DNA of 57,595 nt, taken from a virus. The notes below the pieces were generated by a model that worked only from the letters and a program-made list of their open reading frames with translations, had not been told where the DNA came from and ran no database searches. Where the stretch lies: IMG/VR virus record IMGVR_UViG_3300030248_000076, positions 1 through 57,595 of that record; one strand, written 5' to 3'. Within the stretch, counting starts at the first letter, position 1. Every line of letters begins with the position of its first letter. The position numbers and the translations under genes were made by a program. Positions 10-54,955 of the stretch are shown here, in pieces.

Positions 10-123
10 AACCAACATTCTTCGTTTAGTGGTTAACCTTGATCGCTCGGCCGAGCGCCTAGAATCGATTTCAAAACAACTTTCCGCGCAGGGCCTCTCC
101 TTCCAACGCATCCACGCTATAGA
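1..123. repeat. Terminal direct repeat, copy 1 (identical to 57473-57595); circular-assembly overlap
   Basis: Base-by-base comparison of the window start and end. The repeat cuts through a gene, so it is not a physical genome end. Confidence 0.95.
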
Positions 124-781
124 CGGTCGTAAATTGAGTTCTGAGGAACTCGCCCGGCTAGAGGCCCCCTACGATGCCCCCGAGAAATTCGTCTTCAGAA
201 AAGCGCTGTGGCCAACTGAGATTGCATGCTTCCTATCGCACGCAGCCTGTTGGGAAAAGCTCGTAAAAAGCAACTGCGAATGGGGCTTGATCATGGAGGA
301 CGACATCGTCCTATCGCCCCGCTTCAAGCTGTTCGCTACCTCTTCCGATTGGATTCCTCAAGGGGTCCACGTCATCCAGCTCCACGGGTCCCGTCAAACG
401 TTCACTGTCGGAGAAAACTATCCAGTTCATGACACGGAATTGTTTCGGATCATCCAGCCAACACCGCTTTGCACCTTTGCGTATCTGATTCATCGCGAAG
501 CCGCTGCCTACGCATTAGCTACCTATATGCCGATACCGGCTCCCGTCGACGACTGGCTGTTCTGTCCTTACTCCGACTTCGCGAAACGTTTCCCTCCGCA
601 TAGATTGCTTTCGGCTTGCGTCTGGACGCTTGATGGCCCATCGAACATCGGAGACCGAGCCTGCCGCAGACGCCTACCGACGAGCGTAAAAGTGCGTTTG
701 CTTCGTGCCATCAAGTCCGGTGGCTATCGCCTTACAACGATGTTCCAAAAGAAACGTTCTTTAACGCTGACGCACGATTGA
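29..781 (+). CDS. Glycosyltransferase family 25 (LPS/LOS beta-1,4-galactosyltransferase-like, LgtB/Lic2 type). The GTG-29 start is only the frame limit in the 9-C state.
   Basis: VVNLDRSAERL...IHAIDG...EIACFLSHAACW...LIMEDDIVL matches the LgtB/Lic2-type layout. The frame stays open upstream through the poly-C tract. Confidence 0.8.
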   Translation: MVNLDRSAERLESISKQLSAQGLSFQRIHAIDGRKLSSEELARLEAPYDAPEKFVFRKALWPTEIACFLSHAACWEKLVKSNCEWGLIMEDDIVLSPRFKLFATSSDWIPQGVHVIQLHGSRQTFTVGENYPVHDTELFRIIQPTPLCTFAYLIHREAAAYALATYMPIPAPVDDWLFCPYSDFAKRFPPHRLLSACVWTLDGPSNIGDRACRRRLPTSVKVRLLRAIKSGGYRLTTMFQKKRSLTLTHD

Positions 782-835: not shown

Positions 836-1300
836 TTATGCCCGCTCGTAAGGTCTAGGCCAGAGCTCACACATTGTCCCTACGGACTTTGCAAACGCCT
901 CTTTCAGTTGCTCAAGCGTGACTGTCGCGACCTCGTCGTTTGCCAACACCCAGTCGAAAGACGAGAGCCCTGAAATCTCAGCCGCGCGAATAGCGTTCCC
1001 CATTCTAGTTTGGGCACGCTCTCCACCATCAAAGACCATCCCATCGACCTCGACGAGGATTGCGCCAACCTGCTCAGCTCTCTCGCGCTTTGCTTCTGCG
1101 AGATGCCTTGCCTCCAACTCTTCATCTGGAATCTCAGGCTCATAGCCCGCGACGTAATAGCGTCCATCGTAGGCTTGCTCTACTTCTCCAACTTCCGTAT
1201 AACCCATTGCTTCGAACCACTCGATGTCCTCACCAATGGCAATAAGCACCTCTTTGGTGTTCTCATTTTGAATCTTGTATCTTTGGGTCATAATATTCAC
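836..1300 (-). CDS. Tail fibre assembly chaperone (DUF4376-like)
   Basis: Last gene of the fibre module. Acidic N-terminal half, and the C-terminal ...FDGGERAQTRM...WVLANDEVATVT pattern is typical of Tfa-type chaperones. Confidence 0.6.
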   Translation of the reverse strand: MNIMTQRYKIQNENTKEVLIAIGEDIEWFEAMGYTEVGEVEQAYDGRYYVAGYEPEIPDEELEARHLAEAKRERAEQVGAILVEVDGMVFDGGERAQTRMGNAIRAAEISGLSSFDWVLANDEVATVTLEQLKEAFAKSVGTMCELWPRPYERA

Positions 1301-1923
1301 ATCATTTTATGGAAATAAATCTTGCCTGGATTGCTAACGGTATATGTTTCTCCGGCTCGTACAGGGAGCATCATTGTCGCATTCCCAGGGTATCTGTTTT
1401 GATAGAACTCAAGAATTAAGGCACCGCTGGCTTTGTGTATGACTTTCCCGCCCGTATAGTCACCGCTATTCATATTTTCGAGTCTCAGCCAACCATCTTC
1501 GCTCGGAGTGTAATCCCCTGCACCAATTTGAACGTACGATCCATAGTTAGGCATCATCCGTGCCGTAATAGGAATAGTTACATTCCCATCAGTTCCCGGC
1601 GAAATTCCGTTGACACTACGAACGAGATTGGGCTTACCGCTCACGCCCGTCCAAGGCACCGTATCCGCCGTTCCTGCGGTCTTCGCCTTGGCGTTGATGC
1701 CCAAGTACGTCGAGGCGGCGTCGGCCTTCGTGAGGTACGGTGTCAGGTTGGGTGCGGGTGCCTCGGCCGCCGAAATCGCCCCAATGTTCTTTCGCGCCTG
1801 CGCTTGCTGAGCGGCAGTCAGCGTCTGAGGCGTTAGCAGCACAACCTCATCCTTAAGCGCCAGTTTGGAGAAAAGCTGCTGCTTGAAGTAGGTCAGGCCA
1901 GCCAGATCGAGAAATGAAGCCAT
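1297..1923 (-). CDS. Tail fibre / receptor-binding protein (short fibre)
   Basis: N-terminus MASFLDLAGL is shared with the upstream fibre gene. Overlapping stop/start with the chaperone gene. Confidence 0.6.
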   Translation of the reverse strand: MASFLDLAGLTYFKQQLFSKLALKDEVVLLTPQTLTAAQQAQARKNIGAISAAEAPAPNLTPYLTKADAASTYLGINAKAKTAGTADTVPWTGVSGKPNLVRSVNGISPGTDGNVTIPITARMMPNYGSYVQIGAGDYTPSEDGWLRLENMNSGDYTGGKVIHKASGALILEFYQNRYPGNATMMLPVRAGETYTVSNPGKIYFHKMM

Positions 1924-1942
1924 GAGACTTTTCTCCTAGAGA

Positions 1943-2803
1943 TTAAGCAAAGAGAGCATCAATGTCGGCGGTGGCAACTGCCGTGACGGAGAACGAACCA
2001 CCCAACGGATCCCAAGTCGGCGTATCGCCGCTAGTGCGAGCGACGTTCGTGCCCGCGGGATAGGTCTGACCATCGAGATCAAACGCCGCTTCGATGTTGT
2101 ACGTGTCACCGACAGCCGCATCAGCCGGAAGATCAGTAAAGGTGGCAACCGTGCCCTTCCAAGAAAGCACGCTGGTAAAGTCAGCCTTGAGCGCGTAGCC
2201 CGAAAGATCAATGTTCACGCCCTTGGAGTTGATCGGGAGAGCATTGCCATTGACGCTGACGGCTTCAATGACGTTTGCCTGAGCACCAGCTGCAATGCCT
2301 TCAAGCTTCGCAAAGTCAGCCTTAGACATCAGGCCGTCAGCAGTAGCAGAAGCAAGGCCGTAAGTCGTGTCCTGAGCCGGGATGCCGAGAGCGGTAATGT
2401 CTGCTTTCGTGACAGCCGTAGCGGTCGAAACGGCGCCGGTTTCAGTGACGGTGATCTTGTACAGAGCGGCATCTTCATGAGCTGTATAGGTAGCAGGCTC
2501 ATAGACGACAACTTCCGTACCGTTGATCTTGACGTTGCCGTTGGTCGTAGATTCTTCGACCTTCGTGGCGCCTGCGGCAATGCCGGCAAGCTTGGCGAAA
2601 TCGGCCTTTGACATAAGACCGTCGGCTGTTTCGGTCGCGAGAGAGTAGACCGTGTCCGGAACCGTGAAGGTGCCGAGAACGGCGCCCGAGATGGCGCTGA
2701 GCGTTACTACCTTGCCGGCAATGGAGATACCGCCCGCGGAGACGGCCTTGATTTTGGAGTCGTAGTGGGAAAGACCGGCAAGGTCAAGAAACTGTGTGGC
2801 CAT
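1943..2803 (-). CDS. Tail fibre protein with a repeated ADGLMSKADFAKLxGIAAGA motif
   Basis: N-terminus MATQFLDLAGL. Two copies of a phage fibre repeat motif, and the position is within the fibre module. Confidence 0.65.
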   Translation of the reverse strand: MATQFLDLAGLSHYDSKIKAVSAGGISIAGKVVTLSAISGAVLGTFTVPDTVYSLATETADGLMSKADFAKLAGIAAGATKVEESTTNGNVKINGTEVVVYEPATYTAHEDAALYKITVTETGAVSTATAVTKADITALGIPAQDTTYGLASATADGLMSKADFAKLEGIAAGAQANVIEAVSVNGNALPINSKGVNIDLSGYALKADFTSVLSWKGTVATFTDLPADAAVGDTYNIEAAFDLDGQTYPAGTNVARTSGDTPTWDPLGGSFSVTAVATADIDALFA

Positions 2804-2823
2804 AATTTTCTAATTCCTGGTCG

Positions 2824-3108
2824 TTAAAAAAGGTTGTCAATAAGATTGGTTTGGATCGCGGTGGGCTTGTCGGATTTGATCTTTACGATCTCCTCCGCGT
2901 TTTTGTCGACGCCCGCATCCGTCTGATTAAGTCGCTTTGCCGTGATGAGATCGCCGGGCTGCCAGTTAACGGGATCGTAGGTGTCCTCGGGCACCTCCTC
3001 GTCCGTCACTGCCAATACCTGCGCTCGCACTGCGGGCGTGGCGGCTTTGGTTGAAAGGCGCTTTAAGCTCCGCCTTTCAGGAGCAGAAATGGTCCGAATG
3101 ACGTTCAC
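2824..3108 (-). CDS. Small fibre-module protein, function unknown
   Basis: 94-aa ORF. Its WQPGDLITAKRLNQ motif resembles the N-terminus of the collagen-like protein at 19969-20544. Confidence 0.45.
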   Translation of the reverse strand: MNVIRTISAPERRSLKRLSTKAATPAVRAQVLAVTDEEVPEDTYDPVNWQPGDLITAKRLNQTDAGVDKNAEEIVKIKSDKPTAIQTNLIDNLF

Positions 3109-3125
3109 ATTGCTTCTCTCCTCTC

Positions 3126-4160
3126 TTAGTTAAAGACTGAGTCAATTTCTTCTTCGGTCATTGGCGTGAACGATGAGGCCGCGTCTTCGGCGCGTTTTGC
3201 GGCATCTTCTGCATCCGTGGCGGATTGGGCCGCAGCTTCTTCTGATTTCCCGGCATTAGTTTCGGAAGTTGTGGCGGCGTCCTCACTCAACTTGGCAGCC
3301 TCCGCGGATTTCTCTGCCGCAGAAGCGGCGCTAGTGGCGGTTGTGGCCGATGTTTCTGCGCCCGAGGCACTTGCTTTGGCCTGCTCCGCGTACCATTTGG
3401 CGGAATATTCGTATCCATCAACGGTGTAATCGAGCGGCGCCGTTGGGTCGTCAGGATCTTCTGTCCCAGTCGTCCACGTCGCCCACTTCTTCGCCAAGTC
3501 CGCGTTTGCGGATGACTGACTAGCGCTAGATGCTGAATCCTGTGCAGACGTTTTGGCATTGTTCGCTTGAGTGGTGGCCTCGTCTTTCAAAGTCGTCATG
3601 ACTTCAATGGCCGCCTCGGTATCTACAACCGCCTGCTGCGCTATTTGTTTGGCTTCGCTCGCGGTAGTTTGCGCATCGCTCGCAACGTTTACTGCGTGAT
3701 TCGCTGCATCAAGCGCCGAACCGGCGGTAGTAACCGCGTCGGTTGACAACTCAAGAGCTGAATCTGCCGTGGTAACCGCGGTGTCGGCTGTCTTTATGGC
3801 TGTTTCGCTGTTTGCCTTCGCCTCATTTGCCGTTGATACCGCCGTTGCAGAATTCGACTCGGCAGTAGTGATTCGCTCATTCCACGAATTCACCACAGTG
3901 GTCAAAGAGGTCACCTGACTCAGAGCTGAATTGGCTGTATTGACTGCCGCGGAGGCCGCAGACTGCGCTGAGTCGGCGGTGGTGAGCGCCTGATTGGCAA
4001 TTCTTAGTGCTTCTTCGGTATTTGCGACGATCTGGTACGTGTACTCTCCGACCTCGTTAATCGCATCTTCGGTCTGAGTCAGGACGCTTTGACCGTCAAT
4101 TGTCCCGACTGAGTTCCGAACGTAATGGAACTGGAACTTTTTCGTATCAGCAGAGGCCAT
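3126..4160 (-). CDS. Ala/Thr/Ser-rich fibrous tail fibre protein
   Basis: Low-complexity coiled/fibrous sequence plus a KWATW...YSAKWYAEQAKASA fibre-type motif. Follows the terminator after the main fibre. Confidence 0.6.
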   Translation of the reverse strand: MASADTKKFQFHYVRNSVGTIDGQSVLTQTEDAINEVGEYTYQIVANTEEALRIANQALTTADSAQSAASAAVNTANSALSQVTSLTTVVNSWNERITTAESNSATAVSTANEAKANSETAIKTADTAVTTADSALELSTDAVTTAGSALDAANHAVNVASDAQTTASEAKQIAQQAVVDTEAAIEVMTTLKDEATTQANNAKTSAQDSASSASQSSANADLAKKWATWTTGTEDPDDPTAPLDYTVDGYEYSAKWYAEQAKASASGAETSATTATSAASAAEKSAEAAKLSEDAATTSETNAGKSEEAAAQSATDAEDAAKRAEDAASSFTPMTEEEIDSVFN

Positions 4161-4183
4161 TTGCGCCCTCTAGGAAAATTGGT

Positions 4184-4209
4184 AATAAAAAAGGCCGATT
4201 TCTCGGCCT
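4184..4209 (-). terminator. Intrinsic terminator after the tail-fibre/invertible region
   Basis: Stem aggccga/tcggcct with a 4-nt loop, followed on the minus strand by TTTTTTATT. Confidence 0.75.
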
Positions 4210-4232: not shown

Positions 4233-4251
4233 AGATTCCATCACACACCCA
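4233..4251. repeat. 19-bp inverted repeat, left copy (agattccatcacacaccca)
   Basis: Exact reverse complement of 4989-5007. Same codon phase (IPSHTH) in both fibre tips. Confidence 0.9.
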
Positions 4252-4618
4252 TTCGGGCGCTACGGGCAGCGCCGGCTCGCATTCTCATAATCGCGGGACC
4301 ATGAATATCACCGGCAAAATTTTGGGATGCAACGAAGAAGATGCCTATCCGGGTGCCGAAGGGGCGTTTTACCGAGACGGGATGTCGTCAGGCGGCAAAG
4401 GCGGCTTTTCTGACTACAACATTTCGTTTGATGCGTCGCGTACTTGGACCGGATCAACCAACTCAACGGGGTCGCATACGCACTCGTTGTCCCTCGATGC
4501 AACAGGCGGAGGAAAGGGACATACGCACTCCCTTACAGGTGAATCGCACAGCCACAAGATCAGCCTGCCCCTTCCTCCATTTTTTAAGTTGGCTTTCTTT
4601 GTGAAGCTCCCCGAATAA
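4235..4618 (+). other. Silent, promoterless alternative tail-fibre C-terminal cassette (127 aa)
   Basis: IPSHTHSGATGS...PLPPFFKLAFFVKLPE is homologous to the last 128 aa of the fibre at 4619-5674. No start codon or RBS of its own; the upstream part of the tracked ORF runs through a terminator. Confidence 0.8.
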
Positions 4619-5674
4619 TTACTCGGGCAACTTCACGAAATATGCGAGCTTGAAAAACGGCGGCAGCGGAAGATCAATTGCATGCGAGTGTGAGGCGCCA
4701 TCAAGCGAATGTGAGTGCCCTTTGCCGCCACCGGTATTGTTTAGCGACATCGTGTGTGAGTGCGATCCAGCCGCACTGGTTGAACCTGTCCAATTTCGAG
4801 CGGCGCTGAAAGAGCATTTGAACGAAGCATTTTCTGAGTCTCGATTGTCACTGTTTGGGCATGTTCCGTTTGAATAAAACGCGCCTTCAACGTAACTGAT
4901 TTTGTGATCGTCAACGGGGAAGGAACCAGTGATATCCATTGTCCCGCGCGTGTGAGTGTGTCTCCCTGCCGGGGATGTTGAGCCGCTGTGGGTGTGTGAT
5001 GGAATCTGATCAATCGAGAGAATCGTTTCACCGACCGTACCGGCAATTTTCGCCTCAGCGGTCGTGACATTTTGGGAGCCTCCCGTTGCACCGGATTCAT
5101 CTACGGTTGACGGCAAAATGAACTTGCCTACGAGGTTCGGAACGGTACCGCCCAAACCATCATCGCCGCCGTCACACAGCACATAGCGCTCATCTGCAAC
5201 ACTCTCGCCCCAAGGAATCAAGCGGCGCCCATCAGAACCGCCCAGCTTGCAGTTGTAGAAGGGCGTGATCTGCCCCGCGATGACGCTGGGAGCATCCATG
5301 TTTTTCCACACGGTTTTATCACTGCCGGGTGCTACTGCGGTGGTGCTGGGCCCATTGGCCACAAGGCACCTAAACTTTTGAGAACCCTGAAAAACTTCGT
5401 TGCCGGGCTCATAGTCAAGCACAGCGGAATATTTCATGATGCCGCCCTGTTGGTACCAGACGAGAAATTGCGACAAGAGGAAGAGGGCCCCGTTGAAGTC
5501 TTCGCGCTTCGGCGGGATGCCGCCCTCGCCGATCGGCATGGCGTTGACGGGGCCGAAGCCCACTTCTTGCGAGAAGCGGCCCGTACCTGCCTCCATCGCG
5601 GTGCTCGGCGGGATCGTCTTGTCGCCGCTTTCGGCGATCGCCGCCGTCAGAAAGTGTTGAGGATATTTGCTCAT
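4619..5674 (-). CDS. Tail fibre protein with an HxH-repeat C-terminal tip
   Basis: Start MSKYPQHF chosen over the longer tracked ORF. Conserved fibre N-domain, and a tip with SHTHS/RHTHT/SHSHT/GHSHS/SHSHA motifs. Confidence 0.8.
   Translation of the reverse strand: MSKYPQHFLTAAIAESGDKTIPPSTAMEAGTGRFSQEVGFGPVNAMPIGEGGIPPKREDFNGALFLLSQFLVWYQQGGIMKYSAVLDYEPGNEVFQGSQKFRCLVANGPSTTAVAPGSDKTVWKNMDAPSVIAGQITPFYNCKLGGSDGRRLIPWGESVADERYVLCDGGDDGLGGTVPNLVGKFILPSTVDESGATGGSQNVTTAEAKIAGTVGETILSIDQIPSHTHSGSTSPAGRHTHTRGTMDITGSFPVDDHKISYVEGAFYSNGTCPNSDNRDSENASFKCSFSAARNWTGSTSAAGSHSHTMSLNNTGGGKGHSHSLDGASHSHAIDLPLPPFFKLAYFVKLPE
4989..5007. repeat. 19-bp inverted repeat, right copy, inside the expressed fibre gene
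   Basis: tgggtgtgtgatggaatct is the reverse complement of 4233-4251. Confidence 0.9.
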
Positions 5675-5733
5675 GATTCCCCTGAAAAAAAGCAAACCCC
5701 GGAAGGTGTGATTCTTCCGGGGTTCGATGCCCA

Positions 5734-6384
5734 TTAAGGTTTCCTATGCGATAGCCTGCTTGGCTTTGCCAGATCTTCTCCTGACCACCTCAGCTTGACG
5801 GCCCTCTGATACACAATCCAGTAAGACAGCCCTGTCATTTCTGAGATTTCCGAGATCGTTCTCTTCTTCCCTCTGAAATAGATGCGTAAGGTTTTCGATC
5901 GGTTGTTCGAGTTCTCCTTCCGTGTGACCCATTGACAATTCTGAGGACTGTATCCCTTGTCGTTGTCTATGCGGTCAATCTCTAGATCATCACTGTACCC
6001 AGACGCATCAGCCCACCGCTTGAAAGACAAAAAGTCTTCTTTCCACTCCTCGCAGACGGTGATTCCTCTTCCGCCGTACCGAGAGAACTCCTTGTGGACG
6101 GGCCTGTAGCATCGGTTTTTCATGGCGCACCAAATCGAATAGATCCTCGGCCTGTTTGTCCGAGAGCCGAACCCGTGCGTCATTAAGCGGTCTCTTGCCT
6201 TTTCGCTGTGATAGCAACCGCAAGACTTCGTGTTGCCGCTCTTCAAAGATGGGCCGTAAACATCTAGCTCATTCCCGCAGTCACACACGCAGTGCCACCT
6301 GACGCGACCAGAGGAGGTTCGCTCCCCTTCCCTTGTCACCGTGAGACGCCCAAAGCGCTGCCCAAAGAGATCATCTTTCCGCAT
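5734..6384 (-). CDS. Free-standing HNH homing endonuclease (HNH_3-like) with a C-terminal HTH
   Basis: GRLTV...RWHCVCDCGN...SCGC zinc motif, LEIDRIDNDKGYSPQNCQWVTRKENSNN HNH motif. Inserted between baseplate and fibre genes. Confidence 0.8.
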   Translation of the reverse strand: MRKDDLFGQRFGRLTVTREGERTSSGRVRWHCVCDCGNELDVYGPSLKSGNTKSCGCYHSEKARDRLMTHGFGSRTNRPRIYSIWCAMKNRCYRPVHKEFSRYGGRGITVCEEWKEDFLSFKRWADASGYSDDLEIDRIDNDKGYSPQNCQWVTRKENSNNRSKTLRIYFRGKKRTISEISEMTGLSYWIVYQRAVKLRWSGEDLAKPSRLSHRKP

Positions 6385-6430: not shown

Positions 6431-7066
6431 TTACCCTATTGGAATACTTCTCCCCGGATTGAAAACGCCCTGATTGAACGGAAGAAGTTGGCTTCCCTCG
6501 AACCCGAAAATCTGTTCATCGGGATAGATGATCAGGTAGTTGGCGAGGACGCCAGCTGGTCTATTTAGAAGCCCGTAGGTCGACAAAATCTGCGACTGCA
6601 TATCGGGAATCGCGCCGATGATGACGACCGATGAAATTGCCATGTCTTGGTAGTCGACGACAAAAACTACCGTATCAGTAAGCATCGAAAGAAGCCGATT
6701 TGCCGCATCGGCGGTGGCGTTCGCAATGTTGCAAAGCGCTCGATAAAAAATCAGGAATCGATAGTAGTCATCGTCAAAGCGAACATACTCGCCGTTCACT
6801 TTGATGTACCGATCTACGCCTACGCGCTTGCCCCACCAATCCAAAAAAACGCCGTAGGCAGTCTGCGGATCTGCTATTGCTTGATGAAACTTGTCGACGT
6901 CCTTCGTCGCGTCAATCCCATCCCGCACTGCCAGAGATAAGTTTTGAAACTGTTGGGAGTGGGAGTATTGGGACTGGATGGCAGCAGAAGCAAGCGAGCT
7001 CACATCAGCCATCGCGTCGACGTCTGCTACATCTTCAAAGTTCTGCCACGTTTCAACATCTGCCAT
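6431..7066 (-). CDS. Baseplate/fibre-attachment protein (DUF2612-like, gpI position)
   Basis: Start MADVETW with a GGAGTGAGG RBS. Follows the Baseplate_J gene; DWWGKRVGV...YYRFLI motif. Confidence 0.6.
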   Translation of the reverse strand: MADVETWQNFEDVADVDAMADVSSLASAAIQSQYSHSQQFQNLSLAVRDGIDATKDVDKFHQAIADPQTAYGVFLDWWGKRVGVDRYIKVNGEYVRFDDDYYRFLIFYRALCNIANATADAANRLLSMLTDTVVFVVDYQDMAISSVVIIGAIPDMQSQILSTYGLLNRPAGVLANYLIIYPDEQIFGFEGSQLLPFNQGVFNPGRSIPIG

Positions 7067-7070
7067 AGCC

Positions 7071-8282
7071 TCACTCCGTGGCGAAAACAAGCGAGATCGT
7101 ATCCGCCGAGATCGATGGTTCGATGTTGGCAGGGATCTCTACAAACGTCCCTTTCTCCCCTGTACCCAAGCCAATAACGACGTCTCGCAAGGGCGTATCT
7201 GTCGCTTTTTGGACGATTGGATAAAACCGAGAGGCATAGGCCGTAGTGGCAAGCTTGATGCGCGGGTTTGTCCCTTCACCCAAAAAATCAGCGATGATTG
7301 CTTCTTTGACAGCTATCTGATCTTCATCTGACATGCCAGTTTCAAAGAAGGTCACTTGAACCTTGAAGTCCTCTGATTCCGGACGTGTTATTTGATAGGT
7401 GTATTTAGCGTCGAAATGGTCCTTCGCCACATACCCGACCGAATAGTTGCCGGTCGTCCCGCACCCCAAATCCTTACTGCGGTAAATCGCCTCAGCTATA
7501 TCGCCATCTTCGCCGCCGACAATGCAGATTGCGATCGAATGGGGATCGATCCGGATGCCGTACTTGGTCTGATACTCGTTCGTGAAGTTTTCTAGAACCA
7601 CACAGTCAAGCACGCCGTCAACGCTTGAAAGCTTTGCCTGAATCGCTTCGAGCGAGCCCAGAGCGTTGATTGCGTAGCTCTGCATGATGCGATTCATGTA
7701 TTCCCCGTCCGGCTCTTTCACGCGTCCTGTGGCGCCGGAGTCGGGGTTCGTGATCGAATCCCAGCCGGCCACAATGGTCACGATTTTCGTAACTGAGTCC
7801 GGCAAAACCTCAATCTCACCATGCTCAACGCTTGAGAAAGTCGTTTGAACCGTCCCCGTTTCGCCGATCGAGGCTCCGCCCGCAGCCGAATGCCTGAATT
7901 GATTGCCCAAAGAGTCCTGCACGATTGCGCCATAGGGAATCGTCGTTCCCTTGAGACCTGTACAAATACAAGTCACGATCGTCGGCTCGGAAAGTTTGCG
8001 CTCTACGCCATACAGCGAACCGAGTGCATCTAAAAAAGCCCCTCGGCTGGTGCTGAGTGAGGACATGGCCGCCAAAAAGGCGATTTCAGAATTCTTCGCC
8101 TGAACCTCTGCGGCAATGATGTCCACCACCTGCCCCATCGGAGAGGTCGCATCTGTATCGAGGACGGGTTGCAACGGATCTGTGCGAAAAGCTTCTTGTA
8201 CTGAGGCCGCAAGATCCGTTCGAACATCTTGCGTCTCGGGGATGACAACGCCTTTGTTGCTATCGAAGTTCAGCTCGGCCAT
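7071..8282 (-). CDS. Baseplate J-like wedge protein
   Basis: Start MAELNFDS. N-terminal region is typical of the Baseplate_J/gp47 family, and synteny follows the gp25-like gene. Confidence 0.8.
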   Translation of the reverse strand: MAELNFDSNKGVVIPETQDVRTDLAASVQEAFRTDPLQPVLDTDATSPMGQVVDIIAAEVQAKNSEIAFLAAMSSLSTSRGAFLDALGSLYGVERKLSEPTIVTCICTGLKGTTIPYGAIVQDSLGNQFRHSAAGGASIGETGTVQTTFSSVEHGEIEVLPDSVTKIVTIVAGWDSITNPDSGATGRVKEPDGEYMNRIMQSYAINALGSLEAIQAKLSSVDGVLDCVVLENFTNEYQTKYGIRIDPHSIAICIVGGEDGDIAEAIYRSKDLGCGTTGNYSVGYVAKDHFDAKYTYQITRPESEDFKVQVTFFETGMSDEDQIAVKEAIIADFLGEGTNPRIKLATTAYASRFYPIVQKATDTPLRDVVIGLGTGEKGTFVEIPANIEPSISADTISLVFATE

Positions 8283-8628
8283 AGTCACCGTCCGTAGTAA
8301 TGATGTTGATGGAGCCCGTAAGGCGCCTTGTGTCCTGATCGATTTCAAGCTCGATCGATTCAACCGATTCGACGCCCGGCACGGCCTCCGCTGCTTCGCG
8401 CAGTCTTGAAGCTACAACCGCCCTTTGAATGGGCTTGCCGAGCTGGTCAGTAAACCAATCGATGCCGCGTTCGCTTTCAAAGTAGAGATCGTTTGTGAAG
8501 CATCGGCAGTCATTCGCTACGGCCTGACAGATCGCAGCTGTGCTTTGACACATGACGATCTGCCCCGCACTATCGATTTGAAACCCCCAGTTGTCTGTGA
8601 GCTTCGGTGTGTATGCCGTATGCGTCAT
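8260..8628 (-). CDS. Baseplate wedge protein (gp25/W position)
   Basis: 122 aa, located between the spike and J-like genes. Confidence 0.5.
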   Translation of the reverse strand: MTHTAYTPKLTDNWGFQIDSAGQIVMCQSTAAICQAVANDCRCFTNDLYFESERGIDWFTDQLGKPIQRAVVASRLREAAEAVPGVESVESIELEIDQDTRRLTGSINIITTDGDYGRAELR

Positions 8629-9479: not shown

Positions 9480-10332
9480 CGAGCCACATGCCTTCGAAGG
9501 AGGTTAGCCAAGCCCCAGAATTGGGAGTGTTTGCAGAGAGTTCGTGTGACAAGCTCACGATCTTCCAAACGCCAGAGGCCGACGGCACGATTGACGAAAC
9601 CCGTACTGCCGCGCCAATCCGGAGATCAGGACGAAAGTAGCTGCTGACCTGTATGCCTGTGCCGGAGAAGGTCGGATAGCCAATCATGCCGGTATCGGCC
9701 GACACAACCGGAATTCCGCCCTCTGCTTGGCGCACCTTGCCTCTGGGCACAAGGGCGATTTGATCATCATCGATGATGAGATCAGCCCCTACAGCATCAG
9801 CAACGGCGCGCATTTTTGTGATCGGATCGCCCGTTATCACACAGTCTGAAAGCGTTGCGTCAACGCCCTCGTTTTTAAACGTCTTTCCGGTCTGACTCGC
9901 GAGCATTTGCAGAACTTCGCCCACGGACTGCTGACCGGAAACCGCATACTGCGGCGTCGGATCCAAAATCGGATAGGCGCCGGTCTTTGCTTCCATTTTG
10001 AGCACTGGTGAGGATCCGTTTAAATCTGCATAAGCAGAGGTCACTTCGCCTTGAAAAATGGAAGAAAGGGTGCCGCCGCTCTCTCCTGCTTCAATCGCCA
10101 GAAGATTCCAACGACGCCCAAGCGGACGGAAGCTCAGCACCGTAAGCTGAGCCATCACGTCAAGCGTCAGGCCGTAGATTTCAATCGCACACTGCGCGAA
10201 GTCGACGCCGCCGGTCTTTGAGATCGATACGTGAGTAGCAAAACCCTCAAAGACCTTTTGGTTATTCATTCCCGACTTATCAAGAGTGACTGTGGCCCGA
10301 ATGACCTTCTTGCTGAACGTCATGCTTGCCAT
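9472..10332 (-). CDS. Baseplate hub protein (gpD / Mu gp44 position)
   Basis: Synteny between the tape measure and the spike; 286 aa. Confidence 0.5.
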   Translation of the reverse strand: MASMTFSKKVIRATVTLDKSGMNNQKVFEGFATHVSISKTGGVDFAQCAIEIYGLTLDVMAQLTVLSFRPLGRRWNLLAIEAGESGGTLSSIFQGEVTSAYADLNGSSPVLKMEAKTGAYPILDPTPQYAVSGQQSVGEVLQMLASQTGKTFKNEGVDATLSDCVITGDPITKMRAVADAVGADLIIDDDQIALVPRGKVRQAEGGIPVVSADTGMIGYPTFSGTGIQVSSYFRPDLRIGAAVRVSSIVPSASGVWKIVSLSHELSANTPNSGAWLTSFEGMWLDD

Positions 10333-25464: not shown

Positions 25465-28400
25465 TTACCGTAGGCCAAGTGCCGTTAGATTGTTCGGATG
25501 AATTTTTCGAACGGTGCCTCGGCTCATATCAGCCAAAGCCTGACTCATGCTGTCGATTTGATCGTCGTGAGCCCCTGCCGGGAAACTGAGCAGTTCTGGT
25601 ATGAAATCCTTTGCCACCCACGGATAAAGACCTGCCGGCGGAAGAAAGACGTTCTTTGCCTCCCAGAGCGGCGTGACCGCGGCCGCGCGAGCCTCTTTGG
25701 ACTCCTTCGGATTGATTGGGATGAGCCCTGAAACATGCTTTTTCAGCGTCGCGATAACAGCGGCGCCGTTTGCCTTTTCTTCCACGAGCTTTCGAAGTAC
25801 TCGCGGCCACTTTTCGGCGCAAGCAACGAACTGTTCCACCGTTTTTACAAAGTCCCACTGACCTCGATACTGATCAAGCAAGTAGAAGTTCGCGCCTTTG
25901 CGCCCCCACACCTGCCCAACGACATAGTCAGATCGTTCGGAACCCTTGAACGTCATATCCCACGAAATACACGTGGCATCGAACGTCTTTGGAAGCGTTG
26001 CGCTGTCCCAATGCTGAATCCAATCTTCTTTAAAGAGTCCGCCGCCGTCGGGCACTGGATGCTGCTGATAAAGCGCAGCCCAGTCACGGGAGCCGACCTG
26101 CTTTTGAATGCGAAGCAGCGCATTGAGGTCATAGCGTTCGGGGTGCAAAGCCTCGCCGGCCTTACGGTGCGGTTCGTCGTGTTCGGCAATGGCGGGATAG
26201 TTGATGACGCGCCACTGCTCGCCTTCGCCGGATGCTGCACGGTCAAGCAAGCGACCGACCAGATCATCGCAATTGTGAGTAGGCATCAAGCTTTTACCAA
26301 CTAGATAGATGCCGTCAACTGCGCTAGTTGTTATGCACCTACCCCACCCAGCTTCTTTAGAACTGGCCTTCCTGAAATGTACTTGCCGTTCTTTTGCTCG
26401 AATCGCTTTGCACCGCTTGTACTCCACCTTGCACGGTATGTCTACTGTTGGAGAAAAGCTGAAACGGTTGCAATCGTAATTTCGTTCATATCCGTCTTTT
26501 GCAATCGTCCCTTTGCGGTTAACAACCTCTCTGTTGTTGCAAAGCATACCGAGCGACGAAACTAAATCCTTTACGTCGGAGTACAGCCGTTCGTCGCTGT
26601 TTGCGAATCGCTGAATGTTGTTGGTTTTATCGCCGTCAGAATCAATAAGGCCAGCCAATAACGCCAAACGGTCCTCTATAGACGCGTGTAAGTAGCATCT
26701 AGGTATGTGCTTGTTAAACAGAACACCTAGTTTGACCAACTTTCCTCGAAGTCCTTGATGTCGATACCGATAGCAGTAATTGCCTACCTTATCCGTATAT
26801 CGCGTAAACGAATACGGCGTACTTTCGCAATGTGCCGTATAAGCATGTCCGCATCGAATATCGGGGCCGCTTTTCGAACCATCCCCCAGCCACAAACCAA
26901 ACCAATACGGATCAATTGGGAGGGGTTCGTTTTCTCCAAAATCTAGCGGATCAGGCCGAGGGAGAGTTCTCTGCCTGTCGTCGAGCAGGTTTCCGGCCTC
27001 TTTCAGAACGTAATTATGGGTCGGCCTGCTTTTGACCGGCCATAAATGCTTTGATCCGCAAATAACCGTTTCCGTTCGCGTTTCGACGGCAACATCACAC
27101 CAAACCGGTTCGCAAACGTGCGTAACCTCGACCGGCCTTCCGTCCATCCCGAAAACCCTATCGCCTACCTGAAGGTCGCCATGTCGTTTCCATCCTGCAA
27201 GCGTAAGTACGGGCGTATCGTCCTTAATGGGGTGCCAGCGTGTGCACATCACGATCACGCCGCCACCAGGAGATAAGCGCGTATATGCCGTCGACGTGTA
27301 CCAGTCCCAAAGCGCTTCTCGAATCGTCGCAGAATTCGCGTCGCGTCGATCTTTAATTGCGTCGTCGATAACCAAGCAATCAGCGCCCATGCCTGTAATG
27401 CCTCCGCCGACACCGGCGGCGCGGTAGGCGCCCTTATGCCCAACGATTTCAAAGAGCTCTGCGGTTCGAATGAATGAGCCGAAAGAGGTCTTTACGTTCT
27501 TTGAGTTGAGCGATGTTTCAGGGAAGATCTCGGCGTACTTTGGATCGTCGATCTTGCGCTGTACGTCACGCGAGAAACGTTGCGTCAGATCTGCTGAATA
27601 CGACGTCGCAATGATTTGAAGGTCTGGATACAGCCCAAATGCATACGCCGGAAAAGATCGAGAAACGATTTCGCTATTGTGCGTAGCAACAAAGGTTTTA
27701 CCTATTACATATAGACCATCTTCTGAATCAACTTGAATACAGTTGCCTATCTTTGGACTCTCGAGCTGCTTGACCGCAACGATCGCGTGCCTCTTTTCCT
27801 TCCGCACTCTGGTCGTTTTTTTACGCATCAAACGACACGGTATTGACTTTGTCGGGAAAAAACTAACCGTGTATACAGAGCGCTTTCCAACGATGCCGCT
27901 AGTACTCGTGGTCGGGTCAATCTTTCTAATATGAGCCGTTTCTCCGATTAAACGAATAACCTCAGCAACATCAAGAGCAAGCTTTTCTGATACGGTTGAA
28001 AAAACATATCTGCCATTGACAAACGTGCCATCGGTGTCCATCAGCCCTGCGATTAGTTCCCTCAAATTGCTTTCTGAGTCGAACTTGTATTCGTCGGGCA
28101 CATATTTCCCGTCGAACAATCTCAATCGCTTCATGTCCGCAGAAAACTTATTCCGACGCCGTGGTACTCCGCTCGCGAATGAAAACGTAACAACACCTGT
28201 AGTTGAGTGCTCCCATTCCCCCGTTATCGGCACCCCCAACTTTTCAAATGCATCCTTAACAACCATGGCATCAAGAGGTGTCATATTTATTCTTGGCGAA
28301 CTAGATGTACCATCTCCAAGCCATACACCAAGGCAATACGGCGGCAGGATGTGTTGGACCTCTTCAAACTGTAAGGGGTTTACTCTATCAATTTGATACA

Positions 28401-30192: not shown

Positions 30193-30597
30193 CTACTTCG
30201 GGTCAAAATAAGTTTCAACCACCTCTTGAAATTTTCTACAGACTTCATCGTGAATTTTGTGGAATAGCTTTTCACCGAGGCGCAGCTTTCTCGCACAGGC
30301 GGAATCTGACCTGCATTCACCGTATTTCAAGCGCAGAAGCTGTTTTGCCTTGACGCTCATGTACGGTGACGCATATGCCCTAGTAAGTCTTTCGGCGTCT
30401 TGCAAATCGATTGCAAGGGGTCTTTCGTCTGGTGTGAGCGGAGCGCAATCCTTGTCAAGCGGAGGGATTCCGCGTTGAAGTGCGATTGCGTCCAAAGCAT
30501 GGGCCATCGAAGATGATGTCAGGGAGCCATAAGCGCGAGGGGAGCGAATAGCGCGGCTCCAGTTGAATAACCGCCGAAGAAAGTGATCAGGAATCAT
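30193..30597 (-). CDS. Putative late-gene regulator (antiterminator Q position)
   Basis: 134 aa, directly after rusA and before a promoter-like site plus terminator. No firm motif recognised. Confidence 0.4.
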   Translation of the reverse strand: MIPDHFLRRLFNWSRAIRSPRAYGSLTSSSMAHALDAIALQRGIPPLDKDCAPLTPDERPLAIDLQDAERLTRAYASPYMSVKAKQLLRLKYGECRSDSACARKLRLGEKLFHKIHDEVCRKFQEVVETYFDPK

Positions 30598-40367: not shown

Positions 40368-41321
40368 ATGATTGAATCTAAAGAGCTGCTTCCTGCTCCG
40401 CAGGATGTAGGGCAAGCGCTGGCCTACGCACAAGAACTGTCCAAGTCTGAGCTATTGCCGGCCATTTACAAAGGCAAGCCGCAAAACATCCTCATTGCGA
40501 TGATGTGGTCGAAATCCATCGGCATGCCGACCATTCAAGGTTTGAATTCAATCGCCGTTATCAATGGCAGACCCAGCTTGTATGGTGACGCTTTGAAGGC
40601 TCTTGTGATGTCTAGCGGGCAATGTGAAGACTTCGAAGAGAGTTTCGACGAAAAGGCGTACACAGCAACATGCAGGATCAAGCGTCGCGGCATCCCGTCG
40701 CCGACAGTAGCTACGTTCTCATATGAAGAGGCTGGCACGGCTGGCTTAACAGGAAAAACTGGACCGTGGAAACAATATCCAAAACGCATGTGCCAGATGC
40801 GCGCACGTGCGTTTGCGATACGCGACGCTTTCCCAGATCTCTTGATGGGCATTGCGGTCGCTGAAGAGCAGCAGGACGCGATGGGCGTGGAAGACGCTTC
40901 CTATGAACACCCCGAACCCGTTGCTGAGAAAAAGATGCCGCGCCGCAAGAAAAAGGAAGTTTCGCCGGAGGTTGTGGACGTAGCTGAACAGCCGGCCCCT
41001 GCTGCCGAAAAGGCAGACGTTCAGGCGGTTGATGAGGCCCCCGCAAAAAGTGACGTGGAACAGGCGCCAGAAACGGTTGAGGCGATTCCAGAAATGGATG
41101 AGGCGTCAGAAACGGTTGAGGCGATTCCGGAAATGGATGAGCCGCCATTCGAAGGCGCGCAGAGCGTCTCGGAGTTCATGGCGAAAATCGACGCGGCCAA
41201 CAGCTACGAGGAAGTCGTAGCGATCTGGAAGACTACGCCGGCTGATATTCGCCCTGTGATTCTGGAGGCATGCGCGAAGCGCCGAGATCAGCTTCAAGCA
41301 ACTTCGAAGAGGAACCCATGA
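40368..41321 (+). CDS. recT: RecT-family single-strand annealing protein
   Basis: LPAIYKGKPQNILIAMMWSKSIGM...INGRPSLYGDAL...QYPKRMCQMRARAFAIRDAFPDLL. Acidic C-tail with a 39-bp tandem duplication. Confidence 0.85.
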   Translation: MIESKELLPAPQDVGQALAYAQELSKSELLPAIYKGKPQNILIAMMWSKSIGMPTIQGLNSIAVINGRPSLYGDALKALVMSSGQCEDFEESFDEKAYTATCRIKRRGIPSPTVATFSYEEAGTAGLTGKTGPWKQYPKRMCQMRARAFAIRDAFPDLLMGIAVAEEQQDAMGVEDASYEHPEPVAEKKMPRRKKKEVSPEVVDVAEQPAPAAEKADVQAVDEAPAKSDVEQAPETVEAIPEMDEASETVEAIPEMDEPPFEGAQSVSEFMAKIDAANSYEEVVAIWKTTPADIRPVILEACAKRRDQLQATSKRNP

Positions 41322-41932
41322 TGTCAGACATCATCATCACTGGCGACATCACAGAGCCTGAGTTCGACGAAGACGGGCATGTGTATATGGTTGACGGTCG
41401 TCCGGTTCCGTCAGTTACGCAGGTCATGAGGCCTCTAACTCAGCAGGCATACGCGAGCATTCCCGCCGAAACGCTGAGGCTGGCAGCCGAGCGCGGGACA
41501 GCAGTTCACGCATGCACAGAGTATGACGACGCAGGCGAGCTCGATGAGGCATCGGTTGAAGACGGCTGGAGACCGTACCTAGAAGCGTACCGAAAGTGGC
41601 GCGCTGACGTGAAGCCTCAGATTGATGCGGCAGAACTGCGTCTCGGGTGCAAAAAGTACTGCGGGACTATTGATCGCCTCTGCACGATCAATGGCGAATC
41701 GTGGGTGATCGACCTGAAAACTACGAGCGAAATTCATCCGCACGTCGGTGTGCAGTTGGCTGCGTATGAGGCTCTGGCCGCCGCGAAGTTTGGAAAGCAT
41801 TTCCGGCGAGGCGCGCTACAGCTGAGGTCTGATGGGACCTATCGGTTTACCGAGTTCGTTAGCTACCTCGACGCAGTTTGTTTTGCCGGTTTGCTCAGCA
41901 TTAATTATTGGGAAGCGAAAAATGACTACTGA
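41318..41932 (+). CDS. PD-(D/E)XK exonuclease (recombination partner of RecT)
   Basis: Motifs GTAVH, GTIDRL, WVIDLKT and QLAAY. ATGA overlap with recT. Confidence 0.7.
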   Translation: MMSDIIITGDITEPEFDEDGHVYMVDGRPVPSVTQVMRPLTQQAYASIPAETLRLAAERGTAVHACTEYDDAGELDEASVEDGWRPYLEAYRKWRADVKPQIDAAELRLGCKKYCGTIDRLCTINGESWVIDLKTTSEIHPHVGVQLAAYEALAAAKFGKHFRRGALQLRSDGTYRFTEFVSYLDAVCFAGLLSINYWEAKNDY

Positions 41933-42608
41933 AACAATTTCTCTGGCGATGCCAGAACAATCGGCCTTGATTGCAGAGGCCGACGACGCTAAGAGCACTG
42001 CGGACTTCCTTGTCGTCACTGATGAAGAAAGTCTAAAGATTGCCAAGGACGAGATGAACGCGATGACCAAGCGCATGAAGGCGCTTGATGCGAAGCGGAA
42101 GGAGATCACGAAGCCGCTCGACGACGCGAAAAAGGCTGTAATGAACCTTTTCAAGCCGCCGATCGACACGTATCAAGGCGCGATCAACGTCATCAAATTC
42201 GGGATTGCACGATATGTCGAAGATCAGGAGCGTATCGCCGCCGAAGCTCGAATGAGAGCAGAAGCAGAGGCCGCCGCCGCGCGTGCCGCTCTTGAGGCCA
42301 AGGCTCGCGAGGCCGAGACACCGCAAGAGGCAGAAGTGATCAAAGAGGCTGCCGCGCTTGTCGTGCCAGCAGCCGTTACGGCGAAGCCCGCCGCTAAGGT
42401 AAGCGGCATGAGTACGCAGAAGGTGTGGAGAGGACGCGTCGTTGACATGGGCGCTTTCCTTGCACACGTAGCTATACATCCAGAATGCTTCGACTTAATC
42501 GAAGTGAAGCAAGGCGCACTCGACCGATTTATCCGCGCTACTGGCGGAGCAGTTGCAATCCCCGGCGTTGAGACGCATCAGGAAACAATCGTCTCCTCTC
42601 GCGGTTGA
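41922..42608 (+). CDS. Coiled-coil protein of unknown function (recombination module)
   Basis: Start MTTETISL; Ala/Glu-rich central helix. Confidence 0.5.
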   Translation: MTTETISLAMPEQSALIAEADDAKSTADFLVVTDEESLKIAKDEMNAMTKRMKALDAKRKEITKPLDDAKKAVMNLFKPPIDTYQGAINVIKFGIARYVEDQERIAAEARMRAEAEAAAARAALEAKAREAETPQEAEVIKEAAALVVPAAVTAKPAAKVSGMSTQKVWRGRVVDMGAFLAHVAIHPECFDLIEVKQGALDRFIRATGGAVAIPGVETHQETIVSSRG

Positions 42609-52679: not shown

Positions 52680-52936
52680 GTGGGGCAAAGTGTGGGGCAA
52701 TTTTCTGAGACGCCCCGCTCGCCCAATGAATGCGGGAAAGTCCTCATACTCAGATGTTCTAAACCCCACCCCGAGAGCAGTCCGCGATTCATCCGTGAAT
52801 CCCCCGCACTTCCCCGCGCGGGCGCCGATATACTCGGAAGAGCCCGCGCACATACCGCAGATCGGCCGGTTTTGCCCCGCAACTCGTCGCGTCTTCGTGT
52901 GGGGCAATTGGTGGGGCAAAGTTCTCTCTGCCCCAC
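52680..52936. promoter_or_regulatory. attP region with arm-type repeats GTGGGGCAA
   Basis: Direct copies at 52680, 52692, 52899 and 52911. Inverted near-copies at 52872-52880 and 52928-52936. Confidence 0.6.
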
Positions 52937-52940: not shown

Positions 52941-54158
52941 ATGCCTCCCGCTCAAAAAGTCACCGCGAAGTCCGCCCTCACGCTCCCGGATGGACGCTAC
53001 CTCGTCGAGCCGCAGCTCTATCTCGTCGTCCGCCGCGGCGGACTCTCCCGGACCTACTTCATCCGCTACACCCTAGACGGCCGCCGGCGCGATTTCAGCC
53101 TTGGAAGTGCAAAGGACAAAACCCTCGCGGTCGTCAAGGCCGAAGCCGCGCAGGTCCGATCGCTCCTCGCGCGCGGGATCGACCCGAAGGACGCCCGCGA
53201 CCGGGAGCGCGCCGAACGCGCCCGTCCACTCGTCCCGACCTTTGCAGAGTACGTCCCCGGGGCACTTGATGAGCTGAAGCATTTGAGACACTGGGCGGAG
53301 CGCTCCGCATGGACGTATCAGGCGCTCGCGAACATCGCGCTCCGCGATGCGGGATTCGCGTCCCGCCGCCTTGACGAAATCACGGTCGAGAACGTCAAGG
53401 ACTTCCTCACAGGCGTTTGGGATCAGTACAAAAACGCGCACCACTTGCGCGGGCTTTTGGAGATGATCTTCACGCTCGCGCGCCGCGACGGCTTCATGAC
53501 GATCCCGAATCCCGCGCTATGGCGTGGGAACCTCGACGCCTACCTGCCCCTCAAGACGAAAGAGCGCCGCCCAGAGCACTTTCACGCGATCTCACTTGAC
53601 GCGCTCCGGGACGCGCTCCGGGTGCTCATCACGGGGGAGTGTCAGAGCGATCCGGCAATCATCTTCCTCGCCCTCACCGCATGCCGGCGTGATGAGGTGC
53701 TTTTCATGCGATGGAGCGAAGTGGACTTCGATACGCGCACCTTCTCCGTGCCGCCCGAGCGCCGAAAGGACCGTCGGCCCGAGCCGCACGTCGTGCCGCT
53801 CTCAGATCAAGCCCTTGCGCTCCTCGCGCACTGGAAAAAAACTCGGGCCTCACTGCTTTGCGACCGGCGATTTGCCTCCAGGCGTCTAAAAAAAGTCTCA
53901 GGAGACGAAGACGCCACTCTGCACGGAATGCGATCAACTTTTCGTGACTGGTGCGCAGAGACCGGAAAGGATCCGATCCTTGCTGAGAAGTCGCTTATGC
54001 ATGCGACCGGCAACGCCGTCCAGCAGGCATATCAGAGAAGCGACCTGCTTGAGCAGCGACGTCCGCTCATGCAGGCGTGGGCAGACACGATTCTGCCCAT
54101 GGATACGCTAAAAGAAGTTCTGCCAGAAAGTATGAATACTCCGACGGAAAAGTATTGA
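52941..54158 (+). CDS. int: Tyrosine integrase, P4-like (DUF4102 N-domain)
   Basis: Start MPPAQKV. DGRYLV...LYLVVRRGGLSRTYFIRY N-domain, and C-terminal R...HGMRSTFRDW...Y catalytic motifs. Confidence 0.9.
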   Translation: MPPAQKVTAKSALTLPDGRYLVEPQLYLVVRRGGLSRTYFIRYTLDGRRRDFSLGSAKDKTLAVVKAEAAQVRSLLARGIDPKDARDRERAERARPLVPTFAEYVPGALDELKHLRHWAERSAWTYQALANIALRDAGFASRRLDEITVENVKDFLTGVWDQYKNAHHLRGLLEMIFTLARRDGFMTIPNPALWRGNLDAYLPLKTKERRPEHFHAISLDALRDALRVLITGECQSDPAIIFLALTACRRDEVLFMRWSEVDFDTRTFSVPPERRKDRRPEPHVVPLSDQALALLAHWKKTRASLLCDRRFASRRLKKVSGDEDATLHGMRSTFRDWCAETGKDPILAEKSLMHATGNAVQQAYQRSDLLEQRRPLMQAWADTILPMDTLKEVLPESMNTPTEKY

Positions 54159-54910: not shown

Positions 54911-54955
54911 AAAAAAAGAGACCCCGCCCGAGCTTGATGCCCAGGCGGGGTTTCT
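54911..54955. terminator. Bidirectional terminator between convergent genes
   Basis: 8-bp stem accccgcc/ggcggggt. T runs follow on both strands, better on the minus strand. Confidence 0.7.

Follow-up and report, generated by a model that had tools for sequence, protein, structure and literature searches.

Can an invertible tail-fibre segment be switched in a phage that does not appear to encode an invertase, and if so, what flips it? This question is raised by a 775-bp cassette at positions 4233-5007 of IMG/VR virus record IMGVR_UViG_3300030248_000076, in which the end of a tail-fibre gene lies back to back with an alternative version of itself between two copies of a short inverted repeat. 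The window referred to throughout is the whole stretch of DNA analysed, i.e. all 57,595 nucleotides of that record. Invertible fibre segments are the textbook form of host-range hedging in temperate phages, and the well-studied phages that have them bring their own invertase. The analysis set out here covers the structure of the cassette, its orientation in natural relatives, the selection and exchange acting upon it, and the enzymes that might act on its repeats.

Structure of the fibre locus

The expressed tail-fibre gene (4619..5674, minus strand) encodes a protein of 351 amino acids (aa) that consists of a baseplate-proximal part, a tail-collar-like domain and a C-terminal tip, designated tip A. 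The most likely start is at 5674 (MSKYPQHF) rather than that of the longer, 371-aa open reading frame (ORF), which would have to extend across the hairpin (5726-5693) that terminates the HNH endonuclease gene upstream. The constant part of the fibre occupies 5008-5674, and the swappable C-terminal tip measures 127 or 128 aa. Tip A (4619..5005, minus strand; 128 aa and a stop codon) is expressed in the window and has five His-x-His motifs and a variable middle part, and tip B (4235..4618, plus strand; 127 aa and a stop codon) is silent in the window and comes to be expressed after inversion. In each tip, the variable middle spans roughly residues 28-75. The initial annotation had judged the tips to be roughly 55-60% identical by eye and to lie back to back, in agreement with the 56% identity calculated (75 of 133 aligned columns) and with stop codons that abut at 4618/4619.

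The sequence AGATTCCATCACACACCCA forms a perfect 19-bp inverted repeat, with one arm at the head of the silent tip (4233..4251, plus strand) and its reverse complement at the constant/variable junction of the expressed gene (4989..5007, minus strand); these arms are the proposed crossover sites. Both read ..AG ATT CCA TCA CAC ACC CA, i.e. (Q/E)IPSHTH, in the same codon phase. The 19-mer had been described as the only long identity between the tips at the DNA level, and it is indeed the sole exact match of at least 12 nucleotides (nt) between them, the runner-up being 11 nt. No further copy was found in the window with up to three mismatches allowed, and none of 100 shuffles yielded one. The outer flanks of the repeat are non-homologous and its inner flanks diverged, and no dyad symmetry is visible in the 19-mer by eye. 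The outer flank of the 4233-4251 arm, ttgaatcttttttgttgagtg, is the same in the relatives compared, being one base off in L104/L108. The arms enclose an invertible segment of 737 bp (4252..4988) holding the two tips tail to tail, within which no other genes were called and for which there is no room; this segment and both 19-bp arms together make up the 775-bp cassette.

A terminator-like hairpin with a T tract (4182..4209, minus strand, with the hairpin at 4209-4192) lies directly after the cassette. The hairpin reported in the initial annotation as the operon terminator is thus present, but the end of the operon is not clear, since fibre-like genes follow on the same strand. The second copy had been described as lacking a start codon, but tip B sits in an open frame that begins upstream with a TTG at 4100, crosses the terminator region and overlaps the start of the downstream gene; this frame is on the other strand from the late genes. 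No promoter-like site was found between 3000 and 6500.

A search with the fibre protein returned 1181 homologues, the names of which include tail fibres of gut Caudoviricetes, Sutterella and Duodenibacillus, and a profile of the fibre family matched the tail-fibre structures 9qgo and 9nxk among PDB sequences, over the collar-like region and the extreme C-terminus. No family was found for the fibre or its tips in Pfam and NCBIfam, and a nucleotide search of GenBank phages with the fibre region gave no match. An AlphaFold2 model of the fibre, built from a 21-sequence alignment, was unusable (mean predicted local distance difference test 40, predicted template modelling score 0.18). In RefSeq, where the closest clusters are assigned to Sutterella wadsworthensis, the fibre appears under the name ‘short-chain fatty acid transporter’ (WP_418866355.1, WP_410106277.1 and WP_418872186.1, from the clusters of proteins P0001, P0003 and P0002, respectively), which is a mis-annotation that hides the fibre locus.

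Orientation of the cassette in natural relatives

Precise inversion at the repeats occurs in nature. Contigs bearing the cassette were gathered through protein look-up and exact scans for the 19-mer in viral and metagenome collections, and homologues were scored separately against the constant part, tip A and tip B. This search of related phages for both orientations, which had been proposed in the initial annotation, yielded 41 public cassette loci, with tip A expressed at 22 and tip B at 19. Exactly two tips and two repeat copies were present at every cassette locus, and the inner segment was 737 bp in all but L111, where a homopolymer is 1 nt shorter through a deletion.

The protein predicted to result from a flip, in which the constant part is fused in frame to tip B, is present in public data residue for residue (P0140, listed in 116 collection blocks), as is the fibre protein of the window itself (P0123); for two further genotypes, both fibre isoforms are likewise in public data. 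A related protein, P0003, has a constant part 98% identical to that of the window and a tip 93% identical to tip B, and its contig (L001) has collinear flanks of 97.6-99.3% identity between which the reversed part corresponds exactly to window positions 4233-5007. For L126/L130 and L103/L127, the inversion is the sole difference: the flanks are identical over the 1400 nt compared upstream and the 1114 or 347 nt compared downstream, and the cassette matches at 775/775 positions as the reverse complement. Contigs L112 and L122, in opposite orientations, differ at 6 positions over 12 kb of flanking sequence and at a single position within the inverted segment. Lineages with different flanks each hold both orientations. 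Since the 19-bp repeat is shorter than typical assembly k-mers and read lengths, and both the A and B forms occur in contigs whose names indicate several assembly pipelines, an assembly artefact is not a credible source of the difference in orientation.

A counterpart of the window was also observed. Contig L125 (ERZ28641085, scaffold_331; 57,596 bp) is in the B form and 1 bp longer than the window. It has 1 mismatch over 6 kb of sequence preceding the cassette and another within the inverted segment, and is likely the same phage in the other state.

Selection, repeat conservation and exchange at the locus

The second cassette was checked for decay, which the initial annotation had named as a sign against a functional switch, and both tips proved to be intact frames in all surveyed cassette loci but one. 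The sole damaged cassette in the survey is that of L111, in which the 1-nt deletion falls in an A6/T6 run some 35 nt short of the stop codon of tip B, here the silent tip, and frameshifts the last codons; this deletion may be a sequencing error. The ratio of nonsynonymous to synonymous substitution rates (dN/dS) between lineages was 0.10-0.20 for tip A and 0.03-0.21 for tip B, the latter including pairs in which both copies are silent, with dS up to 1.4. These substitution patterns show that both tips are under purifying selection and therefore that both are in use.

The repeat is conserved beyond its coding content. The 19-mer is invariant in all arms except for a single C-to-T change in one arm of L001, L118 and L123, and at the fibre-side arm position only one distinct sequence, the exact 19-mer, was found in 33 loci. 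In the L088 lineage the 19-mer is unchanged, with 700 nt on each side at 68-78% identity and the segment at 79%. By comparison, 60 single-tip relatives that have no silent copy keep IPSHTH while differing at 3-7 of the 19 positions, mostly wobble positions, and coding alone therefore does not impose the 19-mer, which bears out the earlier proposal that it is maintained at the DNA level.

The same proposal had pointed to the divergence of the flanking codons, and polymorphism within the cassette is highest in the 48 nt that adjoin each arm on its inner side. The leader of tip A (4941..4988, minus strand) is a hot spot of diversity and gene conversion, with a mean pairwise difference of 0.235-0.264 compared with 0.012-0.101 elsewhere in the tip, and the leader of tip B (4252..4299, plus strand) is a diversity hot spot with 0.11-0.17; taken together, the leaders range from 0.11 to 0.26, versus 0.01-0.12 in the remainder of the tips. 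Homologous exchange is, beside precise inversion, a process that shapes this locus over evolutionary time. At L093, the fibre-side arm is 5 positions off the 19-mer, and an intact silent tip A (99.8% identical to that of the window) has been left with a single arm, so that the cassette is probably locked. The crossover at this locus falls in roughly the final 30 nt of the tip, a stretch that matches the end of the window's tip B.

Exact scans for the 19-mer in the viral and metagenome collections returned this phage group only, plus single-copy matches in unrelated contigs. In five environmental contigs the 19-mer occurs once each, in a context that they share with one another and not with the phage group; these contigs are unrelated, and the matches were taken as chance. 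Contig L090 (= L098) was considered as a second cassette system and rejected, its second arm being weak and located in an unrelated gene; this is an unrelated phage of 46% G+C, the fibre gene of which shares 27 nt, ATTGATCAGATTCCATCACACACCCAC, at IDQIPSHTH (10241-10267), with a single copy of the 19-mer and no opposed tip.

A deletion derivative of the phage (L106/L091/L066; 13 kb, two contig records) was also observed, in which window positions 5637-45819 are missing and 5636 is joined to 45820. The joint lies at the microhomology GCCGAAAGC and creates a chimeric fibre N-terminus (P0174, on 4 contigs). The cassette and both repeats are intact in this derivative, and recT and the exonuclease gene are gone. 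The flipped isoform of its chimeric fibre was not found in the collection, a comparison without power given that the native form is on only 4 contigs.

Search for an invertase in the phage genome

The statement in the initial annotation that the genome contains no invertase gene was examined with six-frame and profile searches, and on this evidence the conclusion that the phage encodes no recognisable dedicated inversion enzyme holds. A tblastn search of all six frames with Gin, Hin and gamma-delta resolvase gave a best E value of 0.036, inside a structural gene. Pfam, PHROGs and NCBIfam were run on some 50 ORFs with lengths from about 130 aa upwards, and among these the recombination-type matches were restricted to an integrase, a RecT-like protein, an exonuclease, RusA and homing endonucleases, with no Resolvase domain. 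Neither a second tyrosine recombinase nor any serine recombinase was found in the complete genome, and no reverse-transcriptase domain of the kind used by diversity-generating retroelements was found in the Pfam scans. A loose gix/hix consensus gave 3 matches against 2.6 expected, none of which is near 4233 or 5007.

The RecT/Bet-like annealing protein (40368..41321, plus strand) has weak matches to Pfam RecT and NCBIfam bet_lambda, neither of which reaches its curated cut-off. The exonuclease, its presumed partner (41832..42608, plus strand), matches PHROG 10477 (E = 3e-30), and RusA (30587-31009) was assigned by domain searches. Several ORFs of 170-310 aa (e.g. 39396-40322 and 51593-52303) had no match in Pfam, PHROGs, NCBIfam or PDB sequences. 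The HNH endonuclease (5734-6384) was rejected as a candidate catalyst, as it is a typical homing endonuclease and is absent from the cassette-bearing L002 and L085.

The only site-specific recombinase found is a P4-type tyrosine integrase (52941..54158, plus strand; Pfam Arm-DNA-bind_3, Phage_int_M and Phage_integrase, with NCBIfam support), which adjoins attP and lies about 9 kb around the circle from the cassette. The attP site (52680..52936, plus strand), placed from prophage junctions, has GTGGGGCAA arm-type repeats flanking the core TCAGATGTTCTAAA (52750-52763). Four exact arm repeats lie within 52680-52919, and the only other exact copy in the window, at 6828-6836, is outside the cassette. 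The corresponding attB is formed by the 3' end of a metallophosphoesterase gene of the host. Comparison of the att core with the fibre-side arm, read with two upstream bases, revealed only TCAGAT in common. Near-identical sister phages with the same cassette have an integrase that is 42% identical (with the last ~75 aa shared) and are inserted next to hicB/ahpC, and a third sister group has an AcrVA2-like/ParB/PAPS-reductase module at the integrase position. Both orientations occur with each integrase type or module, which argues against the integrase as the catalyst, an argument weakened by module shuffling. A break in synteny with L001 at window position 54913 was rejected as an att site, being a module boundary at a bidirectional terminator.

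Proposed mechanism and alternative explanations

The core reading of the initial annotation is supported, namely a two-state invertible host-range cassette with the 19-mer as its crossover site and no invertase in the phage. In the proposed mechanism, conservative recombination between the two 19-bp inverted repeats would flip the 737-bp segment, such that the constant part would be fused in frame to the other tip and the first tip would be parked in a silent state. A site-specific recombinase acting in trans would catalyse the exchange by recognising the asymmetric 19-mer. Its most likely source would be the host chromosome or a co-resident element, trans supply being suggested because the phage appears to encode no invertase of its own. 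The catalyst may accordingly be host-encoded or of a non-canonical kind, as the initial annotation had supposed. A site-specific exchange is favoured by a repeat that is short, has no visible dyad symmetry and is placed exactly at the constant/variable junction, as the repeats of tyrosine-invertase shufflons are, and by identity that ends sharply at 19 bp in most lineages, beside the most diverged stretch of the cassette. The pneumococcal spnIII locus, in which a 15-bp repeat depends on its recombinase and far longer repeats do not, speaks for it as well (PMC6620402). That the locus is a two-state host-range switch flipped by a site-specific recombinase acting in trans is a reading held here with about equal measures of belief and doubt.

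Several points weigh against this reading. No recombinase for the 19-mer was identified in the search of the phage genome, and exact-match scans gave no other locus with the 19-mer, though a global host invertase might predict one. There is no overlap among the samples listed for the two forms, i.e. no sample in which both were found, and rare flips amplified by selection would give the same comparative picture. The invariant repeat is also expected under homology-driven flipping, in which a change in one arm would break identity. Further, homologous exchange clearly acts on the locus: the leaders are reciprocally swapped between the tips in L088, one leader is present on both tips in L085/L086, where the repeat is thereby lengthened to 67 nt, and in L093 (3250-4750) the fibre has acquired a third type of tip by recombination. 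As for the host-range component, family membership is what suggests that tips A and B may bind different receptors.

A possible, if rather doubtful, alternative is that the same switch is flipped by short-homology recombination, whether by the RecT-like protein and exonuclease of the phage, by host RecA or by template switching during replication; for example, a single strand with inverted 19-nt ends might anneal in the inverted orientation to a strand of the same polarity at a replication fork. Besides RusA, the phage encodes an exonuclease and a RecT-like protein but no invertase, and the repeat falls on QIPSHTH, the most conserved motif of the family, where diverged tips would keep DNA identity most easily. 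The leader swaps, the 67-nt repeat and the recombined third tip point to frequent homologous exchange at the locus, both orientations occur regardless of the integrase module, and rare events would suffice for the comparative data. However, 19 bp falls short of what RecA or Red usually needs for efficient recombination, the match to RecT is weak and does not reach the Pfam cut-off, and most lineages keep only 19 bp of identity when selection should favour longer repeats. Of comparable systems, the most closely studied is the pneumococcal spnIII locus, the 15-bp repeat of which does not invert without its recombinase (PMC6620402). The broader proposition that no dedicated invertase is needed at all, with the RecT-like protein and exonuclease reinserting the segment inverted by way of its 19-nt ends or the integrase moonlighting as an invertase, is entertained only tentatively.

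The remaining explanations are less probable. It is unlikely that the P4-type integrase doubles as the invertase, with the 19-mer serving as a secondary core-type site during lysogeny. This enzyme is the only site-specific recombinase of the genome, its att core shares TCAGAT with the fibre-side arm, and Int-catalysed inversion was reportedly described in HK022 lysogens by Dorgai and others in 1993. Yet the likeness of core and repeat amounts to one hexamer, the GTGGGGCAA arm-type sites are grouped at attP with none in the cassette, and the same 19-mer is found in both orientations in phages with the 42%-identical integrase and a different attB; L118, L124 and L120 show no integrase at that position within their contig sequence. 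It is very improbable that there is no ongoing inversion, and that the orientations are old alleles spread by homologous recombination in the flanks or are assembly errors. The highly mosaic nature of these phages would be compatible with this, as would the finding that none of the samples listed contained both forms, but segments in opposite orientations are identical or 1 nt apart where old alleles would have diverged, lineages with different flanks each have both orientations, and the silent tip appears to be under purifying selection; assembly errors are countered by the length of the repeat relative to k-mers and reads and by the recovery of both forms from several pipelines. Equally slight is the prospect of an unrecognised phage recombinase of a new kind among the unannotated ORFs, e.g. 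39396-40322 or 51593-52303. Several ORFs of 170-310 aa without a database match leave room for such an enzyme, and 39396-40322 has two helix-turn-helix-like stretches by eye, but no serine- or tyrosine-recombinase motifs were seen by eye in the unannotated ORFs, none of these ORFs is near the cassette, and there is no positive evidence for the idea.

Genome context and neighbouring genes

The window is a complete temperate phage genome, circularly permuted, of 57.6 kb and 53% G+C, with circular permutation supported by relatives that read through both window ends. It belongs to a group of Sutterella wadsworthensis prophages, being a temperate myovirus of a common human-gut lineage with abundant representatives of both the A and the B form. 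The late region on the minus strand contains, in order, the baseplate J gene (7071-8363), the DUF2612 wedge gene (6431-7090), the HNH gene (5734-6384) and the fibre gene. The HNH homing endonuclease gene (minus strand) is inserted between the wedge and fibre genes and has its own terminator, a terminator-like hairpin (5693..5726, minus strand) situated between the HNH gene and the fibre start; the gene is present in L001 and L087-type relatives and missing from L002 and L085.

Five more genes follow the cassette on the minus strand (836-4160), encoding an Ala-rich coiled-coil protein (3126-4160, the first past the cassette), ORFs of 94, 286 and 208 aa, and a DUF4376 protein. In L002 and L086 a tail-collar-domain protein replaces the 208-aa ORF, and the phage may carry a second, exchangeable fibre set in this region. 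Just past these fibre-like genes, on the opposite strand, lies a gene for a family-25 lipopolysaccharide (LPS) glycosyltransferase (29-781, plus strand), which suggests lysogenic conversion of LPS and hints that LPS is the receptor of the fibre. Elsewhere in the genome, the large terminase subunit (25465-28974, minus strand; 1169 aa) has Terminase_6N and Terminase_6C matches interrupted by matches to LAGLIDADG_3, Hom_end and Hint_2, which suggests one or two inteins with homing endonucleases. No tRNA genes were found in the window or in seven relatives.

Implications of the locus

What makes the locus interesting is chiefly its missing catalyst, together with the natural variants that have been found. 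For orphan phage segments, it makes the question of who flips them testable, and for short repeats it does the same for flipping without a site-specific enzyme. The variants useful in this respect include repeats of 19 and 67 nt, the loss of one arm (L093), a one-base change in one arm (the L001 group), two integrase types and the deletion derivative without recT and the exonuclease gene. If it is true that a dedicated invertase is not needed, this would be a programmed host-range switch run with general-purpose recombination enzymes and a 775-bp cassette. In gut phage catalogues the locus will be mis-called, as the A and B forms look like different receptor-binding types while belonging to the same phage.

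Comparison with known inversion systems

The initial annotation had likened the locus to the host-range switches of Mu G and P1 C, noting three differences, and both the resemblance and the differences were upheld. As in Mu G/Gin, P1 C/Cin, e14 P/Pin and p15B Min, a constant 5' part is combined with opposed alternative 3' parts, the junction carries the inverted repeats within coding sequence, and inversion changes the receptor-binding end and presumably the host range. However, these Din-family systems have an adjacent serine invertase, 26-bp dyad-symmetric gix/hix/cix sites and fibre-assembly (chaperone) genes within the segment, whereas here there is no serine invertase in the genome, the 19-mer has no visible dyad symmetry and no gix/hix-like site is present, and the 737 bp hold only the two tips. 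The locus is thus like Mu G and P1 C in function and outside that family, with every testable defining feature of the family lacking.

Short repeats are known from shufflons, the sfx site of the R64 shufflon being 19 bp long. The Rin shufflon of bifidophages has an 11-bp rix site at the constant/variable junction (PMC6109161), and in both the Rin and R64 (Rci) systems short asymmetric repeats join the constant N-terminal part of an adhesin or receptor-binding protein to alternative C-terminal parts, much as they do here. The shufflons differ in having a dedicated tyrosine invertase adjacent to several cassettes, compared with one segment, two cassettes and no adjacent recombinase in this phage, and the repeat sequence is unrelated to theirs. 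A diversity-generating retroelement is also a poor match, as such elements need a reverse transcriptase, and the copies here are inverted, 56% identical and both coding. The pneumococcal spnIII hsdS locus is similar in being a coding-sequence inversion with its catalyst in question; inversion at its 15-bp repeat strictly needs the locus-encoded CreX (De Ste Croix et al. 2019, PMC6620402), and its 85- and 333-bp repeats need neither a recombinase nor RecA to invert (PMC6620402).

In a survey of gene-altering programmed inversions in bacterial reference genomes, tail-fibre proteins were reported as enriched targets and DUF2612 proteins as enriched neighbours, with recombinase genes usually nearby and regions without one acknowledged (Milman et al. 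2023, PMC9881135). The present locus shares with that class, as described there, the inverted repeats, the opposed partial gene copy and orientation variation within a species, and the gene at 6431-7090 belongs to the same family as the DUF2612 neighbour; this locus was not found by name in the portions of the main text consulted (PMC9881135). Here, repeats flank the 3' part of a gene together with an opposed homologous partial copy, and both orientations occur in close relatives with breakpoints at the repeats. The locus is therefore a minimal gene-altering programmed inversion.

No literature was found on this Sutterella phage group or on Sutterella invertons, and the closest published case is from bifidobacterial prophages. 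In 689b-1 and Bb423phi2, a locus of about 500 bp is inverted with no flanking recombinase, and an invertase acting in trans was proposed (Mavrich et al. 2018, PMC6109161); in that locus, the 3' end of a gene for a structural protein is paired with a small gene in the opposite direction, and inversion takes place at a short repeat. The invertase-free architecture pointed out in the initial annotation is thus confirmed but less unprecedented than was implied. The bifidobacterial case comprises one prophage pair, an 8-bp repeat and genes of unknown function (PMC6109161). The present case, in contrast, draws on 41 loci, among them exact inverse pairs, and on a repeat of 19 bp in a gene recognisable as that of a fibre; selection is evident on both cassettes, and no invertase was found anywhere in the complete genome. 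An orphan phage inversion locus was therefore already known (Mavrich et al. 2018, PMC6109161), and the locus described here is a much better supported example.

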